A DNA stretch of 64,000 nt from Nitrospirota bacterium (lineage in GTDB: Bacteria; Nitrospirota; UBA9217), in assembly GCA_963790205.1 (NCBI GenBank), contig CAWBNQ010000001.1, positions 64,001-128,000 of the forward strand, read 5' to 3'. A program made the translations under genes and the position numbers. Shown in pieces: positions 10,387 to 16,046 of the stretch. A model generated the notes under the pieces. It ran no database searches. It had not been told where the DNA came from and was given only the letters and a program-made list of their open reading frames with translations. The number at the start of each line of letters is the position of its first letter. Within the stretch, counting starts at the first letter, position 1.

Positions 10387-10572
10387 ACGGGTGCGCCTGG
10401 ACAAGCGGAAACTTTCGTTTCGCCCCCCTGTGAGTTTCGGGCGTCGTTGCGGCGAATGACGTTACGCCGCCGGACCCCGGAGATTATGAGAACGTTGCCG
10501 GGACGTGCCGCGTACGCAACTCGTGCCCGCGCGGGAATGCCGCGAGGCCCGTTGCGGGGCGCGGAGAATGTT

Positions 10573-11301
10573 TCAGGCTCGCTCCTTCTCAACGATGCCG
10601 CCCCGGACCGCTTCGAGAATATAGGACTTGATAAGCGCCTGGTCCTCGGGGTTGATCTTCACGAACTTCATACCCATGCCCGGTTCTTTAAACGGGCTCG
10701 CCTCCAACGAATAACTGTACAGGACGACCGCCTCGAGTTCCATCGTCCTGCCTTTGAGTTCTACGCGGATCGGGACCCGCTCATTTACGTCCTGCGGTTC
10801 TTTTGTCCGGACGAACATGCCGAACTCGGACAGCACCGTAACGCAACCCTTGATCCCATCCGCCACAATGCCGATGGTCGCCTCCAAGCTGGTGCCGATC
10901 CTGATGTTCTTACGCGGGGTCTTTTCTATCACCGCCTGGATAGTTTGATAAAACAGTTCCACGTCCAGGGGCTTGGCCAGACAGGCGGCGATCTCTCCCC
11001 TGCGCGCCTTGAGTTCCAGGTCCAGGTCGCGCGCCTTTGCCAGGAAAATGACCTGGGTGTCGGAAAAACGGGGGTCTTTCTTCAAGCTGGAGACGAGGCC
11101 CGCGCCGATCCCGGCATCGGCAATGATCGCGGCAGGCGGCGCCACGTGCATGAACTCGACGGCGTCCGACGCCGTGCTCGCGGTGCAGATGTTGTAGCCG
11201 AACCTCTGCAGCACCATGCTGATCAGGAAACGGTCATCCACGTCATTGTCCACCACCAGAAAATACCAGTTCTTTCTCCCCGAGACGGCTGTCCCCTCCA
11301 T
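10573..11301 (-). CDS. Receiver domain plus PilZ domain protein
   Basis: N-terminal REC-like fold; RKNIR, LSEFGMF, PGMGMKF. Confidence 0.8.
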   Translation of the reverse strand: MEGTAVSGRKNWYFLVVDNDVDDRFLISMVLQRFGYNICTASTASDAVEFMHVAPPAAIIADAGIGAGLVSSLKKDPRFSDTQVIFLAKARDLDLELKARRGEIAACLAKPLDVELFYQTIQAVIEKTPRKNIRIGTSLEATIGIVADGIKGCVTVLSEFGMFVRTKEPQDVNERVPIRVELKGRTMELEAVVLYSYSLEASPFKEPGMGMKFVKINPEDQALIKSYILEAVRGGIVEKERA

Positions 11302-11642
11302 GCTCTCCTCCTTATCAGCTCACGACTGCGACACGCATTTTCTCCGACGCCGGCAAGGACGCCATCAATGATTGCTGTAGGAAAGTATAGCAGAAAATAT
11401 TCGCGGGGTCATTTCTGCCCGCCTATCTTTATGATTCACCTTGTCCCGCGATTTCGTTATGTTGAAGCTCTCGTCCATATTTTGTGCCATGCGGACGAAC
11501 TTGTTTCAGGCGAAACGGGGCCGAATGCATCCGCCATGATAACCGTAGTGACAAGCCGGGAGACCGCTGGCTGCTGAACGGTTATGCTATACTAAGAGGT
11601 AAGAAGACTTTTTTCGTATACTGTATCACACGGGGAGGACGT

Positions 11643-12425
11643 ATGCTCGTCATCGCGGACAATCTCAGCGTCAGAAATGCGAAGTATATGGAGGCGGTAA
11701 AAAAGAAGGACAAAAAGGCCATCGAGGCCATGGCAAAGGAGCTGGCGTCTCTCGGCGCGGAGATGATCAACGTCCAGGTCTCGCTCGACGGTGTCGGGGA
11801 TGAAGACGTACTGCCCATGGCCACGGAAGCCGTGCAGAACGGCGCCTCACTGCCCTTGTGCCTGGATTCGAGGAACGTGAAGGCGCTCAGGAAGGCGGTG
11901 CTGCTCTGCAAGGAGCCGCCTATCATCAACTACCTGTCCGCGGACGAGAAAAATCCCGAGGAAATGCTCTCCCTGGTACGGGATACGAAATCGAACCTCG
12001 TCATCCGGGCGCTCAAGGGGACCGTGCCCATGACGCTCGAGGCCAAGCTCATGATCATCGAGGACCTCATCGAGAAGGCGAATGCCGCTGACGTCCCGAA
12101 TGAACGGCTTTTCGCCGATCCCTCGGTCGTGCATATCAGCAAGGGCATGGGCCAGGAGCACCTCTTAAACGCCCACGAGAGTATTGTGGTGCTGAACGAG
12201 ATGGTCGACCCGCCCATTAATACCGCGGTCTGGATCTCGAACGTAACGACCGGGCTCCCGAAGCAGCTGAAATCCACCGTTGCCTCATCCTACCTGAGCT
12301 ACCTCGCGGGCGCCGGGCTCAATGCCGCGATGGTAAATGTAAAGGATGCGGAGATCATGAAAGCGGTGTATCTGATCAAGACCTTCCGAGACGAGATCAC
12401 CTTCGCGGCGGGGGATTTGGGGTAG
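11643..12425 (+). CDS. acsE: Pterin-binding methyltetrahydrofolate:corrinoid methyltransferase (AcsE-like)
   Basis: MLVIADNL, PLCLDS, IINY, LFADP, ISNVTTG, AGLNAAM; GGAGG RBS. Confidence 0.7.
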   Translation: MLVIADNLSVRNAKYMEAVKKKDKKAIEAMAKELASLGAEMINVQVSLDGVGDEDVLPMATEAVQNGASLPLCLDSRNVKALRKAVLLCKEPPIINYLSADEKNPEEMLSLVRDTKSNLVIRALKGTVPMTLEAKLMIIEDLIEKANAADVPNERLFADPSVVHISKGMGQEHLLNAHESIVVLNEMVDPPINTAVWISNVTTGLPKQLKSTVASSYLSYLAGAGLNAAMVNVKDAEIMKAVYLIKTFRDEITFAAGDLG

Positions 12426-12437
12426 GACGGCTCCTTT

Positions 12438-13115
12438 TCAGCTTTTCCTTTTAGCGCTCCTGACCCGGTACAGCCTCTCGGTGAAACCGCCTTCGGTTTC
12501 AAAGGCCTTTGCCTGGGCCGCAAGCTGCCGGTCGAGCAAGTAGCAACACAAGTTCAAAAGCGAAAGCGCGGCATTGGCCACCAGCGTAGAATCTGACACG
12601 GACCTGCACGGACTATCAGTGACAAGCACGGACTGCCGGTTTTTGTTACTGCTTTCCGTGTAAGTCCGTGCCCGTCCTTGTTTGTCCGTGTGCTTTTGTT
12701 TGTCCGTATGCTCTTTCCCCCGCTCCTCCTCCACCCAAACCCGCACATCCTCCAAAGACGCGCACCGCTTCGCCTTGAAGCGCTTGAGACTCGGATGGTC
12801 CGGCTCCCACAGGGGCAGCTCACGCTGCCGCAGAAAATCCTCGTAATCGAGCCGCAGTTCCTCCAGGCTCGCCCGGGCCACGTTGGTCAGCTTGAGTTCG
12901 GTTTTTTTGGAGGTAGCCGACGCCTGGCTGCCCTCGGCGATATTCTGCACGCCGCTCCTGGCCGCCTGCACCATCTGATCGTGCGTGCGGCTGCGCCTGC
13001 TGATATAAAGATCGCAAAACCGGACCGTCACGTCATAGACAAGCTGAGCAAGCTGGAAGCTCTTCAGATTGCGGTAACCGCCGTGTTTGGGAATAAGGGA
13101 TTCCTTCTCTATCAT
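12438..13115 (-). CDS. Four-helix-bundle protein with suffix domain (TIGR02436/TIGR04258-like)
   Basis: GGYRNLKSF, DQMVQAARSGVQNIAEG, NVARASLEELRLDYEDFL, FETEGGFTERLY. Confidence 0.88.
   Translation of the reverse strand: MIEKESLIPKHGGYRNLKSFQLAQLVYDVTVRFCDLYISRRSRTHDQMVQAARSGVQNIAEGSQASATSKKTELKLTNVARASLEELRLDYEDFLRQRELPLWEPDHPSLKRFKAKRCASLEDVRVWVEEERGKEHTDKQKHTDKQGRARTYTESSNKNRQSVLVTDSPCRSVSDSTLVANAALSLLNLCCYLLDRQLAAQAKAFETEGGFTERLYRVRSAKRKS
12597..12708. repeat. In-frame inverted repeat array, CACGGAC / GTCCGTG, 10-nt period
   Basis: CACGGAC-like at 12597, 12607, 12617, 12627; GTCCGTG-like at 12654, 12664, 12674, 12684, 12702. Confidence 0.85.
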
Positions 13116-13142
13116 GGCGACCTACCTGTTTTTGTTCCTTCT

Positions 13143-13180
13143 GTCCATGCCCATCCGTGAACCGTCCTTGTTCGTCCGTG
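13143..13180. repeat. Third arm of the same repeat, upstream of the four-helix gene
   Basis: GTCCATG, ATCCGTG, GTCCTTG, GTCCGTG at 13143, 13153, 13164, 13174. Confidence 0.8.
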
Positions 13181-13202
13181 CGCCCGGCAAAGCAGGCATG
13201 GC

Positions 13203-16046
13203 TTATTTACTCCTTTTTTTCTTTTTCGTCTTCATTGTCTCTGGTGCAGGCAGCAGGCTCGTATACTTGTGATACAGCTCAAACAGGAACGCCACGCGTT
13301 CGGCATCGGAGGTGAAGGTCTTCTTTCCATAAGCGGCATCAACGGCCTTATCAAGCGCTTGATGCGCCTTTCGTAAGTCCGGCGGCATGGCAACCGGGTC
13401 GTAGAGGTCAGCAAGTGACGCGTCGGGATGCGCGGCACGAGCATCGAGTACGGCCTGTGCTGCTTTCTCAATTGCTGATTTCTGTTTGTCGGTTGGATTG
13501 CTCGGCCAAGGGAAGTTGTTGTAGACCGATGGTGCATAGCTATAGCGACTTTCTAGGCGGCCAGCAACAGCACGAACCCATGCCATGTGCATTGTTGAGG
13601 ACAAGACGCCGAGATGGTAGAGCGTTGCACCGACAACGATCTGAAGTTTGTTACTGGCAATAATCGATGCGGGCAAGAATGCCATCGGAATGTATTGTCG
13701 ATTCTCGGATGAGACTTCAGGCACGGCTAAATACGCTCTACTTGGTTGGCGATCCTGTGTAAACAGTGTTGGGTATTCTGCGAACTCGCGTACGCTCTTT
13801 GTCGGGCTCTTCAAGCGGGCATTCCTTACTCCGGAAACCCGCTCATGGATATGAGGAAGTGCTTTTAATTCTGCCGGGCTGATATTTTTTAACCAAAGAC
13901 ACCATCGATTCATGCCTTGAAGCAATTCATCACCACCCATATATGGGCGCAGCCACTTCTTGGCGTCAGGCTCAGTCTTAAGCAGAGCCTTTTTATCATC
14001 CTCGTCAAGAATAAGAAATCCACCATCAGTTGGCTGACTACCCTTTTTCATTTGTGGTATATCAGGCAGTGGATCTGTTCGTGAAGGTAGCAGCATATCG
14101 GGTGCATCTACGAGATAAGGATTGATATTATAAGCTTTGCGTGCGTGAGGTACGCCGTTTATATCGGGATAGTCATAGATGGTTTTACAATCAGTATCGT
14201 GCAATGCAAAGCCTATGATGACACAATGAACCGCTGCTTCTCCACGAGCTTCATTGCTCCATCGAAACGTGCGATGAGCAAAATGGATCTTCGCACCTAG
14301 TCGTAGCAGCTCACTCCACAAAATGCCAACCTGCTCCCCTTGTGAAATCGAATTTGTTGAAACAAAGGCCATTTTTACACGGTTGCATGGCGATTTAATC
14401 ATCCCGGAAAGTTTATCCGTCAAACTCGCTATCCGGTCATCGCCCTTCACATACTTTACTGCCTTCAAATACCAGGCAGTAACATAGTCCAGGCGTCCAA
14501 AACGACCCTCGCTACCCCACACCGCTGTCATATCGGCAACTTGTTGCGCGTTGCGCCACTGATGACCCACAAACGGCGGATTACCAAAAACGTAGTCAAC
14601 CTGCTCGGCAGAGATTACTTTGTTCCAGTCCATTTGCAAAGCGTTCCCGCAATGGATCGACGCCGAGTGAATCAGCGGCAGGCGGCGGAAGTACTGACCG
14701 AATTCTTCGGACACCTTCATGTTCATCTGGTGGTCCGTGAGCCAGAGGGCGACCTGCGCGATCTGTGCCGGGAATTCCTCGATCTCGATGCCGTAGAATT
14801 GGTTAACGTCCACCTGGATCAAACGAAAGATATCCGTATACTGCTGTCCCTTTTCCGTCTTAAGCGCCGCTCTCAATATTTCAAGCTCCAACTTTCTCAG
14901 TTCCCGATAAGCAATGACAAGGAAGTTTCCACATCCGCAAGCCGGATCGAAAAATTTCAGCCGGGCAAGTTTTTTATGCAGCTCGAAGAGCTTGTTCGTG
15001 CTCCGCTTCGAGGCCTCGAACTCGGCCCAGAGATCGTCGAGGAACAGCGGCTTGATGAGCTTCAGGATATTCTGTTCGCTCGTGTAGTGCGCGCCGAGAT
15101 TGCGCCGCCGGGCGGACCCTTCTTCGTCCATAACACACTGAAAGAGCGCTCCGAAGATTGCGGGAGATATGCGGCCCCAGTCAAGCGCGCAACAGTCGAG
15201 AAGCAGCGTCCGCATCGCGCTGTCGCATGCGGATATGGGCAGCGTCTCCTCGAACAGCCGCCCATTCACATAGGGGAAAGCGGCGAATACTTCGTCAAGG
15301 CCCTTTTGACGTTTACTTTCGGGAGTGTTAAGGACCTGAAACAGCATTGACAGTTGCGGCCCGAGATCGGAGCCGTCTTCGACTGTATTGTTCTCGATAA
15401 AATCACGGAATGAACCACGTGGTTCAAAGAGCGTGGTGTCCTCGGCAAAGAGGCAGAAGAGCAGGCGAACGAGCATCACTTCAAGGACGTGTCCCTCGTA
15501 ACCCGCCGATCGCAAGCGGTCATGGAGCTTTCCCATGCTCTCGGCCGCCTTGATGTTTACAGGGTCCTGCTCGGTTATCTTCTGCGTCGTATAGCCGGCG
15601 ATGAAGCCGAACAATTTTATGTTCTTGTAAAGGTCCTTGAGGGGAAATTCATTCTGCGTCTTTGAATCAAGATTGTAGAGACGAATGCGGGCGAAGTCGG
15701 AGACGATGACGTAGCGGGGTAGGTCGCGTTCGGCCAGGCCTTCAAAGTAATCCAAAGCCTGCCGATATGCCGAATCGAGGTCCTTGCCGAGAGACTTGTG
15801 CTCGGCGATGAGCATTCCCTTCCAGAGAAGATCGATGAATCCGCCCTTGCCGCCTTTTTCCTCGTATCGTTTGCGGGCAAGCTTAACCGGCTCTTCAAAG
15901 CTCGCAAGACGCCTGCGAGACATGCCGAAGACATTGAAGAACTCATTCCAAAACGTCTGTGCCTCGGCACGCTCGGCCTTCGCTCCTTCCCACTCACGGG
16001 AGAAAGCGAGGGCGCGGTCTTTGATTTCGTTCAGGGAAAGGGGCAT
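13203..16046 (-). CDS. MmeI-like type IIL/IIG restriction-modification enzyme (nuclease, N6A methyltransferase, TRD)
   Basis: EAQTFWNEFF, FIDLLW..LIAEHKS, GAHYT, FFDPACGCGNFL, GNPPF, YNNFPWP. Confidence 0.92.
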   Translation of the reverse strand: MPLSLNEIKDRALAFSREWEGAKAERAEAQTFWNEFFNVFGMSRRRLASFEEPVKLARKRYEEKGGKGGFIDLLWKGMLIAEHKSLGKDLDSAYRQALDYFEGLAERDLPRYVIVSDFARIRLYNLDSKTQNEFPLKDLYKNIKLFGFIAGYTTQKITEQDPVNIKAAESMGKLHDRLRSAGYEGHVLEVMLVRLLFCLFAEDTTLFEPRGSFRDFIENNTVEDGSDLGPQLSMLFQVLNTPESKRQKGLDEVFAAFPYVNGRLFEETLPISACDSAMRTLLLDCCALDWGRISPAIFGALFQCVMDEEGSARRRNLGAHYTSEQNILKLIKPLFLDDLWAEFEASKRSTNKLFELHKKLARLKFFDPACGCGNFLVIAYRELRKLELEILRAALKTEKGQQYTDIFRLIQVDVNQFYGIEIEEFPAQIAQVALWLTDHQMNMKVSEEFGQYFRRLPLIHSASIHCGNALQMDWNKVISAEQVDYVFGNPPFVGHQWRNAQQVADMTAVWGSEGRFGRLDYVTAWYLKAVKYVKGDDRIASLTDKLSGMIKSPCNRVKMAFVSTNSISQGEQVGILWSELLRLGAKIHFAHRTFRWSNEARGEAAVHCVIIGFALHDTDCKTIYDYPDINGVPHARKAYNINPYLVDAPDMLLPSRTDPLPDIPQMKKGSQPTDGGFLILDEDDKKALLKTEPDAKKWLRPYMGGDELLQGMNRWCLWLKNISPAELKALPHIHERVSGVRNARLKSPTKSVREFAEYPTLFTQDRQPSRAYLAVPEVSSENRQYIPMAFLPASIIASNKLQIVVGATLYHLGVLSSTMHMAWVRAVAGRLESRYSYAPSVYNNFPWPSNPTDKQKSAIEKAAQAVLDARAAHPDASLADLYDPVAMPPDLRKAHQALDKAVDAAYGKKTFTSDAERVAFLFELYHKYTSLLPAPETMKTKKKKRSK

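Follow-up and report, generated by a model that had tools for sequence, protein, structure and literature searches.

Phased arrays of a short repeat word were found in and around a four-helix-bundle suffix gene in a 64,000-nucleotide (nt) stretch of a Nitrospirota bacterium (contig CAWBNQ010000001.1, positions 64,001 to 128,000 of the forward strand), referred to here as the window. We are highly confident that these arrays are a real, nucleotide-constrained element of the suffix gene family. The word reads CACGGAC in the messenger orientation, its complement is GTCCGTG, and the period is 10 nt. The mirror array within the gene represents a variant of the gene-in-arms layout of the intervening sequences (IVSs) of ribosomal RNA (rRNA), and a matching array lies in the leader. 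As a tentative reading, which we regard as possible rather than probable, the phased opposed rows may form a ladder-like docking hairpin for the gene's own ring-forming protein, through which the gene would control its own messenger. This caution applies to the whole statement, the mechanism included.

An earlier note on this DNA had described three arms of CACGGAC-like units, and all three were recovered by sequence reading and exact-word search (Table 1). The leader arm A1 consisted of one exact unit and three units with a single mismatch, spaced by 10, 11, and 10 nt. It began 22 nt past the stop codon of the upstream MmeI-family gene and ended 27 nt ahead of the ATG. The three arms were far beyond chance when compared with shuffled sequences. 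Exact words on both strands of the window numbered 17, against 7.78 ± 2.62 in shuffles, and six of the 17 were located within 584 nt, where 0.07 were expected (Poisson P(≥6) = 1.7e-10). Clusters of at least three exact words within 80 nt were present at two places in the 4.34-Mb genome, counting the window's own locus, and both were inside paralogues of the suffix gene. The arms A2 and A3 were in frame, as had been claimed. However, they were not located after the four-helix domain. They lay between the TIGR02436 match and the TIGR04258 suffix, in the predicted loop between helices 3 and 4.

Homologous loci were collected in two sets. Set 1 was taken from 80 loci of species-representative genomes from many phyla. 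Seven of these were lost for want of the anchor motif and one locus contained two genes, which gave 74 gene records from 73 loci, and three copies from the window's own genome brought the number to 77. Set 2 was independent and consisted of 80 metagenome loci, 76 of them usable, so that both sets together held 153. Words with a GGAC core at a spacing of 9 or 10 nt marked the homologous position in most of the 153 loci and in many phyla. Two main kinds of word were found, CACGGAC/GTCCGTG with a period of 10 nt and nnTGGAC/GTCCAnn with a period of 9 nt, together with short period-9 kinds such as ATAGGAC. In set 1, GGAC/GTCC reached 45.8 per kb in linkers; leaders had 12.7, tails 7.8, far flanks 7.6, and the bundle core 6.0 per kb. 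The core recurred in phased triplets in 40/77 linkers of set 1 and 55/76 of set 2, and no bundle core contained such a triplet (0/77 and 0/76). The corresponding counts were 13/77 and 19/74 for leaders, 5/77 and 3/70 for tails, and 2/411 and 0/163 for far-flank windows. A recount of set 1, which permitted one extra base of spacing as in the count of set 2, gave 40/77 linkers, 0/77 bundle cores, 12/74 leaders, and 5/74 tails; its leader denominator excluded short leaders, so the leader count of set 1 fell by one. GGAC/GTCC was the commonest 4-mer in 68 of 133 linkers by an unanchored count, followed by overlapping words of the same unit. The core-to-core spacing was 9 nt in 129 cases and 10 nt in 71, and arms were seldom longer than 4-5 exact units. 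The unit was not a spacer-free heptamer, its period being 10 nt here and 9 or 10 nt in homologues. When the word variant was placed on a tree of 70 proteins, 57 of which had a scored state, only six changes of state were counted, too few to relate protein residues to the word.

The arrays always accompanied the gene, across more than 10 phyla, but they could be placed in the leader, the linker, or the tail. In the alignment, every period-9 and period-10 homologue had them at the same position, and no empty site was found in relatives. Six loci were without a linker array (L061, L063, L066, L069, L070, and L072). Their linker was short, and four of the six had arrays outside the gene. The layout of this window, a direct leader array with a linker hairpin, was shared by 26 of the 153 loci; a linker hairpin only was found in 49, and a direct leader array with an inverted linker arm alone in six. 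Many rarer architectures were observed, for example arms in the leader and the tail with none in the linker (L045, L047, L062, and L063). Leader arrays, present in roughly one locus in four, were direct in 36 loci, inverted in three, and tied in one. The median distance from their end to the conserved HGGY codon was 47 nt, which places the end about 17 nt ahead of the usual ATG. The copy number of units differed among close homologues, and the reading frame stayed open in the homologues examined.

The pattern was constrained as nucleic acid, because the words ran through three frames, synonymous codons were biased, and word variants matched between arms. GGAC started at codon positions 1, 2, and 3 in 107, 41, and 44 cases, and 26 of the 47 loci with at least two units used more than one frame within one linker. 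In period-9 loci, GGA was used for Gly at 69% in linkers against 14% in the core (p = 2e-20), TCC for Ser at 61% against 12% (p = 1e-22), and GAT for Asp at 78% against 43%. In period-10 loci, GAC was used for Asp at 77% against 49% (p = 2e-4), and TCC for Ser at 39% against 14%. The words were present in untranslated leaders too: in 14 of 36 leader arrays, every unit preceded an in-frame stop. The three bases before GGAC were then compared between direct and inverted units. Agreement was 0.296 within loci and 0.089 between loci. For period-9 loci only, it was 0.24 against 0.10 (0/5000 permutations), and for period-10 loci, in which the word hardly varies, it was 0.398 against 0.344 (134/5000 permutations). 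Leader and linker could be compared in the 32 of 153 loci with at least three phased units in both. There the prefix agreement was 0.293 within and 0.091 between loci (0/5000 permutations), and the kind of word matched in 29 of the 32. These results supported the earlier claim that the nucleic-acid pattern drives the peptide sequence. The check that had been proposed for it, co-variation of leader and linker units within each locus, was positive where a leader array existed. A linker conserved as protein with free synonymous change, named in advance as the outcome that would speak against the claim, was not observed, and synonymous codons followed the word.

Selection kept the words, their phasing, and their opposed orientation, and not a continuous duplex or sense-RNA pairing in particular, because the words covaried while the spacers did not. 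Word positions were complementary between arms at 0.79-0.99. One variable word position covaried, with a Watson-Crick fraction of 0.62 within loci against 0.45 between loci (0/1000 permutations) and, in a second count, 0.654 against 0.43. The 3-nt spacers showed no complementarity between arms within loci beyond that between loci. Their Watson-Crick fractions at the three positions were 0.21, 0.34, and 0.40 within against 0.30, 0.33, and 0.40 between loci for period 10, and 0.22, 0.22, and 0.19 within against 0.22, 0.29, and 0.22 between loci for period 9. Coding constraints on the spacers may contribute to this lack of complementarity. Purines predominated in the spacers of direct arms, with fractions of 0.83 for period 10 and 0.73 for period 9, and period-10 leader spacers had the same letters. 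The lack of complementarity between spacers spoke against a continuous duplex for RNase III.

Folding was predicted for the arms alone and for the messenger. The in-frame arms gave a hairpin of −51.2 kcal/mol (z = −5.0), with none of 200 shuffles as good, and the perfect core of this local hairpin was 14 bp. Within the whole messenger, the inverted arm was predicted to pair best with the linker direct arm, at −49.3 kcal/mol, followed by the leader arm at −45.9 kcal/mol; the median of other windows was −26.7 kcal/mol. In the predicted fold of the 776-nt messenger, the minimum-energy structure and the centroid structure each retained the local hairpin; the leader arm was paired only in the former, and there with another region. 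It had been proposed that the 3' arm can pair either locally or with the leader arm. The leader arm was indeed a nearly equal partner energetically, but the local hairpin won in the predicted ensemble. The alternative pairing was feasible and not predicted to dominate, and it would enclose only the first three helices and not the whole gene. Among homologous linkers, 34 of 49 folded with z < −2. RNAalifold on 27 period-10 linkers gave 11 pairs that were nearly invariant, with one pair in one sequence changed on both sides. This result says nothing for or against a structure, because the predicted pairs hardly vary.

The assignment of the gene to the family and its resemblance to Avd were both confirmed. 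TIGR02436 matched residues 18-88 with 34.5 bits against a curated cut-off of 24, and TIGR04258 matched residues 177-224 (model positions 2-49 of 49) with 73.6 bits against a cut-off of 40. PF05635 scored 33.3 bits, slightly under its cut-off of 33.8. The protein has a net charge of +10 and at least 8000 homologues, many of which bear the name 'four helix bundle suffix protein' in their source records. An AlphaFold2 model was built from 32 homologues, with a predicted local distance difference test (pLDDT) score of 79.4. Helices were predicted at residues 18-37, 43-65, 70-97, 108-116, 121-141, 175-208, and 211-224. The model matched the S23p-family structure 2gsc_A with Z 16.8 and a root-mean-square deviation of 1.7 over 111 of 113 target residues (model residues 12-204), a Z that exceeded that of the next family member by about 2 and that of the first unrelated bundle by 3.5. 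Other matches were 2rld (Z 14.6) and Avd (8ub7_B, Z 13.5; 4dwl, Z 12.9). The predicted fold is a four-helix bundle of the S23p/Avd type. Because the model aligns with 2gsc, 2rld, and Avd, the suffix is predicted to supply helix 4 of a single bundle, and the repeat-encoded segment appears as a disordered insertion in the helix 3-helix 4 loop, not as a tail after the domain. PF05635/TIGR02436 is a very large family, which to our knowledge has been without a function since its discovery in rRNA intervening sequences; the sole studied relative known to us is Avd, an RNA-gripping pentamer.

Table 1. Coordinates of the suffix gene, its repeat arms, and related genes. Positions are those of the window, except for the short-form genes, which are given in the coordinates of the organism's genome (G000).
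Feature	Position	Strand	Basis
Leader direct arm A1, 4 units: CACGGAC 13180-13174; CAAGGAC 13170-13164; CACGGAT 13159-13153; CATGGAC 13149-13143	13143-13180	minus	sequence reading, exact-word search
In-frame direct arm A2, 5 units, translated HTDKQKHTDKQGRARTYTE: TACGGAC 12708-12702; CACGGAC 12690-12684; CAAGGAC 12680-12674; CACGGAC 12670-12664; CACGGAA 12660-12654	12654-12708	minus	sequence reading, exact-word search
In-frame inverted arm A3, 3 exact and 1 degenerate unit, translated SVLVTDSPCRSV: GTCCGTG 12633-12627; GTCACTG 12623-12617 (degenerate); GTCCGTG 12613-12607; GTCCGTG 12603-12597	12597-12633	minus	sequence reading, inverted-repeat search
Four-helix-bundle suffix gene, 225 amino acids	12438-13115 (stop codon included)	minus	list of open reading frames
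Predicted bundle helices 1-3 (residues 18-97)	12825-13064	minus	AlphaFold2 model
Predicted disordered loop (residues 139-170, pLDDT <50), encoded by repeat arms	12606-12701	minus	AlphaFold2
TIGR04258 suffix (residues 177-224), bundle helix 4 and terminal helix in the model	12444-12587	minus	profile match, AlphaFold2
MmeI-family type IIL restriction-modification gene, 947 amino acids	13203-16046	minus	five MmeI Pfam domains, E 1.9e-91 to 3e-23
Short-form TIGR02436 gene	C14:70630-70950	minus	
Short-form TIGR02436 gene	C11:84493-84813	plus	
Short-form TIGR02436 gene	C1:495877-496197	plus	
Short-form TIGR02436 gene	C3:880136-880466	plus	

All eight family members of this genome had locus-specific arrays. 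Four were of the long form, and every suffix match adjoined its bundle part. The long-form paralogue L002 (L002:1500-2160; G000:C1:658748-659399) carried the CACGGAC word, was frame-shifted and 5'-truncated, and had 83% nucleotide identity and two internal TGA codons; the CACGGAC/GTCCGTG linker arms were kept and no leader array was present. Another, at C1:770434-770967, had ATAGGAC units with a period of 9 nt in leader and linker. The last, L004 (L004:1396-2253; G000:C1:993021-993572 region), was located between hsdS and hsdR and overlapped both (ATGA and ATGCATGATG junctions). Its GATCGGAC-type units had a period of 9 nt and formed four arrays: one within the N-terminal extension, one within the linker, and one each behind the suffix and behind an added zinc ribbon of the topoisomerase type. 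These arrays set the extension, the bundle, the suffix, and the ribbon apart from one another. Each of the four short-form genes lay between two arrays of a word particular to its locus, one on the 5' side and its complement on the 3' side (CAGGGT/ACCCTG; GACGAGG/CCTCGTC-like; AAGAAGTA/TTCTTA; AGTCAGGAGTC/GACTCCTGACT) with a period of roughly 7-8 nt, and the C3 copy had an in-frame TAA. When the duplex energies of their flanks were compared, the cognate pair was best in three of four rows, which is a weak test. An autocorrelation scan of the genome with a threshold of 29/36 matches missed arrays because the spacers differ, and a chain scan gave 17 arrays. Gene-less opposed arrays of another 9-nt unit, GTTYAAACN, were observed at C14:109822, C14:12201 and about 12390, C6:9927-10010, and C1:844212, all intergenic. 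Two of them lay between the stop codon of a histidine kinase and the start codon of a response regulator, and no four-helix gene with the GTTYAAACN word was seen in the genome. The genome-wide chain scan also found a 9-10-nt periodic AAGGCCAGGAA-type repeat at about 1508-1550 of the window (G000:C1:65508). It encodes a Lys/Ala-rich stretch of an apparently secreted small protein and is probably an ordinary peptide repeat.

A periodic, sequence-specific reader of the arrays is suggested, because the words were kept while the spacers were free, because the GGAC core was invariant while prefix and period changed, and because paralogues differed. The encoded protein would be this reader, since the words differ between loci of one genome and no other protein is specific to each locus. 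A host-wide factor could hardly be the reader. In the docking model, the arms would fold, as transcript or as single-stranded DNA, into 6-7-bp helices with 3x3 internal loops. An oligomer of the encoded protein, modelled on the Avd pentamer, would read the periodic structure, and the unpaired 3-nt spacers of the ladder would present bases at regular intervals for the crevices between protomers. Through this binding, the gene would regulate its own messenger, for example its translation or stability. In this locus, the leader arm beside the ribosome-binding site may act as an alternative partner for the inverted arm. Beyond the nucleic-acid conservation of the words, we infer every step of this model. 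A more specific form appears doubtful to us. In it, the protein of each paralogue would recognise the 6-7-nt word of its own locus, in leader and coding sequence alike, with one protomer per word or internal loop, much as the five protomers of Avd share one RNA. The three-arm layout of this window, beside the ribosome-binding site, would then be a switch set by the protein.

The oligomer is taken from structures of the family. S23p of Xanthomonas is described as a homopentamer (PMC4990558). In the Avd pentamer, all five protomers contact an 11-bp stem-loop via flipped-out bases in the inter-protomer crevices, and the RNA required by the diversity-generating retroelement (DGR) includes 20 nt of the coding end of avd itself, as reported in 10.1101/2023.10.23.563531. 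The suffix protein has the same predicted fold as Avd. In contrast to the DGR, a reverse transcriptase and a template/variable repeat were not beside the suffix gene, and the element here is a repeat ladder whose binding we infer.

Several observations weighed against the docking model. We know of no sequence-specific recognition of repeated words that has been shown for the S23p/Avd fold. The frozen GGAC core could result from multi-copy arms under pairing selection alone. The DGR RNA bound by Avd is described as a single stem-loop and not as a repeat ladder (10.1101/2023.10.23.563531). In the rRNA IVS of Coxiella, the stem is reported to act via RNase III, and the S23p open reading frame is probably untranslated and decaying (PMC4990558); therefore, arms work without the protein in at least one setting. 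Within the family, a strict criterion recognised leader arrays in no more than 31 of 148 loci, and most loci had none, so a three-arm switch of the kind put forward in the earlier note is not a requirement of the family. The copy in the relative G007 likewise had a linker hairpin and neither a leader array nor any other array outside the linker, and L002 kept its arms despite the frame shift. The strand tests gave no support to an RNA-specific reading. In 49 linkers, the sense strand folded more stably in 24 and the antisense strand in 25 (Wilcoxon p = 0.23). G·U pairs were 146/1921 in sense against 241/1995 in antisense. At the covarying position, G·T was found at 0.058 within against 0.163 between loci, and A·C at 0.174 against 0.295. 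G·T, a good wobble in sense RNA, was depleted more than A·C; therefore, the element could act as DNA.

The neighbourhood of the gene was compared in 41 genomes, the organism's own included, and in the 73 loci of set 1. No promoter-like or terminator-like site was found by a scan between the MmeI gene and the suffix gene on their strand, so the two genes are likely co-transcribed. A convergent gene for a pterin-binding methyltransferase lies downstream. Many relatives keep the methyltransferase gene, and the similarity ends at its end. The Pfam search of open reading frames of 10500-15500 found no reverse-transcriptase domain in the neighbouring genes, and no template/variable repeat was found beside the gene. 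No rRNA match was found in 11000-14500, where an Rfam E-value search gave only a chance snoRNA match. The location of the gene differed among close relatives. G007 had a four-helix gene of 78% identity between an alpha-2-macroglobulin gene and pbpC, and the neighbouring DNA in G014 was without the MmeI gene and without the four-helix gene. Neighbours differed widely across the 73 loci. In about 12 of them the suffix gene was beside type I restriction-modification or DNA-methyltransferase genes, and other neighbours were repair and housekeeping genes. In L071, L083, and L084 the suffix gene was located between cas7 and cas4 or cas1. A tblastn search with the C-terminus of the MmeI protein against 170 loci (L009-L178) gave the window's own stretch only. 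In a 254-residue relative with 85% identity from a 51.5-kb contig (P0011), the called N-terminus (MAFLFELYYKYTSLLPAPEVKTRKKK...) matched the C-terminus of the window's MmeI protein and entered the four-helix protein after only about nine residues. As judged from its sequence, this relative seems to have the same MmeI neighbour, with the leader array lacking or two frames fused.

An IVS-type RNA stem was considered as an alternative, in which the arms pair in the transcript, the duplex is cut or bound by RNase III, and the protein is not the reader. We regard it as unlikely. The family is named from rRNA IVSs with complementary borders cut by RNase III, which is shown in Coxiella and cited for Leptospira and Salmonella (PMC4990558). 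The strong local hairpin, the stable folds of most homologous linkers, and the short paralogues, each enclosed by a direct arm on the 5' side and its complement on the 3' side, were consistent with such a stem. However, with non-complementary spacers the stem breaks up into successive 6-7-bp helices joined by 3x3 loops, and it showed no sign of selection for an uninterrupted duplex. No advantage of the sense strand and no tolerance of G·U were found, an RNase III site does not require a GGAC core that stays the same from phylum to phylum, and the messenger would be destroyed if it were cut within its own coding region. Nor is the gene in rRNA. The 23S rRNA IVSs of Coxiella burnetii (helix 45) and Leptospira spread horizontally (PMC4990558), and the short paralogues here share their layout of a gene between arms. 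The suffix locus, too, carries an S23p-family open reading frame. It differs from these IVSs in its place outside rRNA and in its arms, which are phased short words with non-complementary spacers. In addition, its 3' arm is inside the coding sequence, and the arms enclose helices 1-3 only or form a local hairpin.

Another alternative was a selfish palindrome at the DNA level, a foldback or MITE-like (miniature inverted-repeat transposable element) insert in a permissive loop without a role in expression. It would persist by hitch-hiking, slippage, and strand-symmetric homogenisation and may help the cassette move. The signals were strand-symmetric, the copy number varied among close homologues, and the gene contexts in relatives were unrelated (G007; 73 loci). 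In a metagenome contig of 1440 nt (run X3), the flanks of window positions 12613-12724 were about 95% identical, with 110 nt of the linker replaced by 94 unrelated letters; the repeat segment changed more quickly than its flanks. The Rickettsia palindromic elements (RPEs; PMC10969869) are a known case of palindromic inserts in frame. Nevertheless, no dispersed gene-less copies of the word were found in the genome. The words were kept while the spacers were randomised, which indicated purifying selection on the words and not conversion of whole arms. The arrays were retained across more than 10 phyla at variable positions and always with the gene. Arrays at the ends of the inserted segment are dispensable; the G007 copy had none outside the linker. 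We judged a selfish origin unlikely on this evidence. RPEs share with the suffix element that a palindromic nucleotide element is translated in frame at a site tolerated by the fold (PMC10969869). They are described there as about 150 bp long, dispersed in many unrelated genes of one genome, and with a conserved peptide. In contrast, the suffix element belongs to one gene family, occupies one homologous site across phyla, has 9-10-nt periods, and has no dispersed copies. The dispersed copies expected of a MITE or RPE were not seen, as the two word clusters in the genome were both in paralogues.

Operator or iteron arrays in duplex DNA are improbable in our view. Here, words one helical turn apart would bind the encoded protein or a host factor and control transcription or DNA structure. 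The spacing of 9 or 10 bp, the strand-symmetric covariation, and the free spacers were in line with such arrays, and Aklujkar et al. 2009 read similar sites of Geobacter metallireducens as binding sites of global regulators (PMC2700814). However, most arrays were inside the coding sequence and far from promoters, and no promoter-like site was found in the leader on the strand of the gene. Leader arrays were strongly polar, and a host-wide factor cannot explain different words at paralogous loci. The paired tandem repeats of G. metallireducens (PMC2700814) and the inverted heptamer pairs of Xanthomonas (PMC4692102) are described as units of 7-9 nt, with 3-5 units in two opposed intergenic arrays, and those of Xanthomonas prefer about four units (PMC4692102). 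They differ from the suffix element in being gene-less and multi-copy with one word per genome class, and they are read as regulator sites or G-quadruplexes (PMC2700814, PMC4692102). A link to a four-helix bundle was not mentioned in the main text of PMC4692102, nor in the main text and 13 of the 19 supplementary files of PMC2700814.

The earlier note had also suggested that recombination between the direct arms removes the domain, here helices 1-3, and leaves a solo hairpin, as in a mobile or switchable module. Two direct arms of the same word were indeed 489 nt apart, and gene-less opposed arrays exist for another word, GTTYAAACN. However, no gene-less cluster or hairpin of CACGGAC was found in the 4.34-Mb genome, every suffix match was beside its bundle part, and most homologues had no leader arm. 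No joint of leader arm and linker arm was found in the contigs of four sequencing runs, although contigs cannot show rare forms, starts, or ends. Twenty sequencing runs shared sampled words of the stretch, each at most 0.19 of the words; all were DNA contigs and none was RNA. As far as genome and contigs can tell, this part of the note did not hold, and we consider such a pop-out very improbable. An ordinary low-complexity linker, with repeats arising from selection for a flexible hydrophilic peptide, is almost certainly wrong: the segment is predicted to be disordered and its frame is kept open, but the reading in three frames gives different peptides, synonymous codons are fixed to the word, untranslated leaders carry the word, and the inverted arm is the complement of the direct arm.

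No description of nucleotide-constrained mirror arrays in the loop of the suffix protein, or of matching leader arrays, was found in the literature searched. The terms 'four helix bundle suffix' and 'TIGR04258' did not occur there. Among the matches listed, papers with the family terms did not use 'TIGR02436' and were not about repeats, as judged for the latter mostly by titles and abstracts. TIGR04258 and TIGR02436, of which the suffix gene is a member, are defined as protein families, whereas the arrays are a nucleotide feature.

The finding brings together an orphan protein and an orphan class of repeats as one testable pair, in which the words are known and differ between paralogues. It also means that a coding segment is dictated by a nucleic-acid signal in all three frames. 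Such 'low-complexity linkers' are therefore open to misreading in annotation, and the signal matters for analyses of evolutionary rate as well. If the word-specific form of the docking model is true, the suffix genes and their arrays would be protein-nucleic-acid modules of a new, self-recognising class. A function would then be available for a large orphan family of at least 8000 homologues, and also for unexplained short tandem repeats between bacterial genes.

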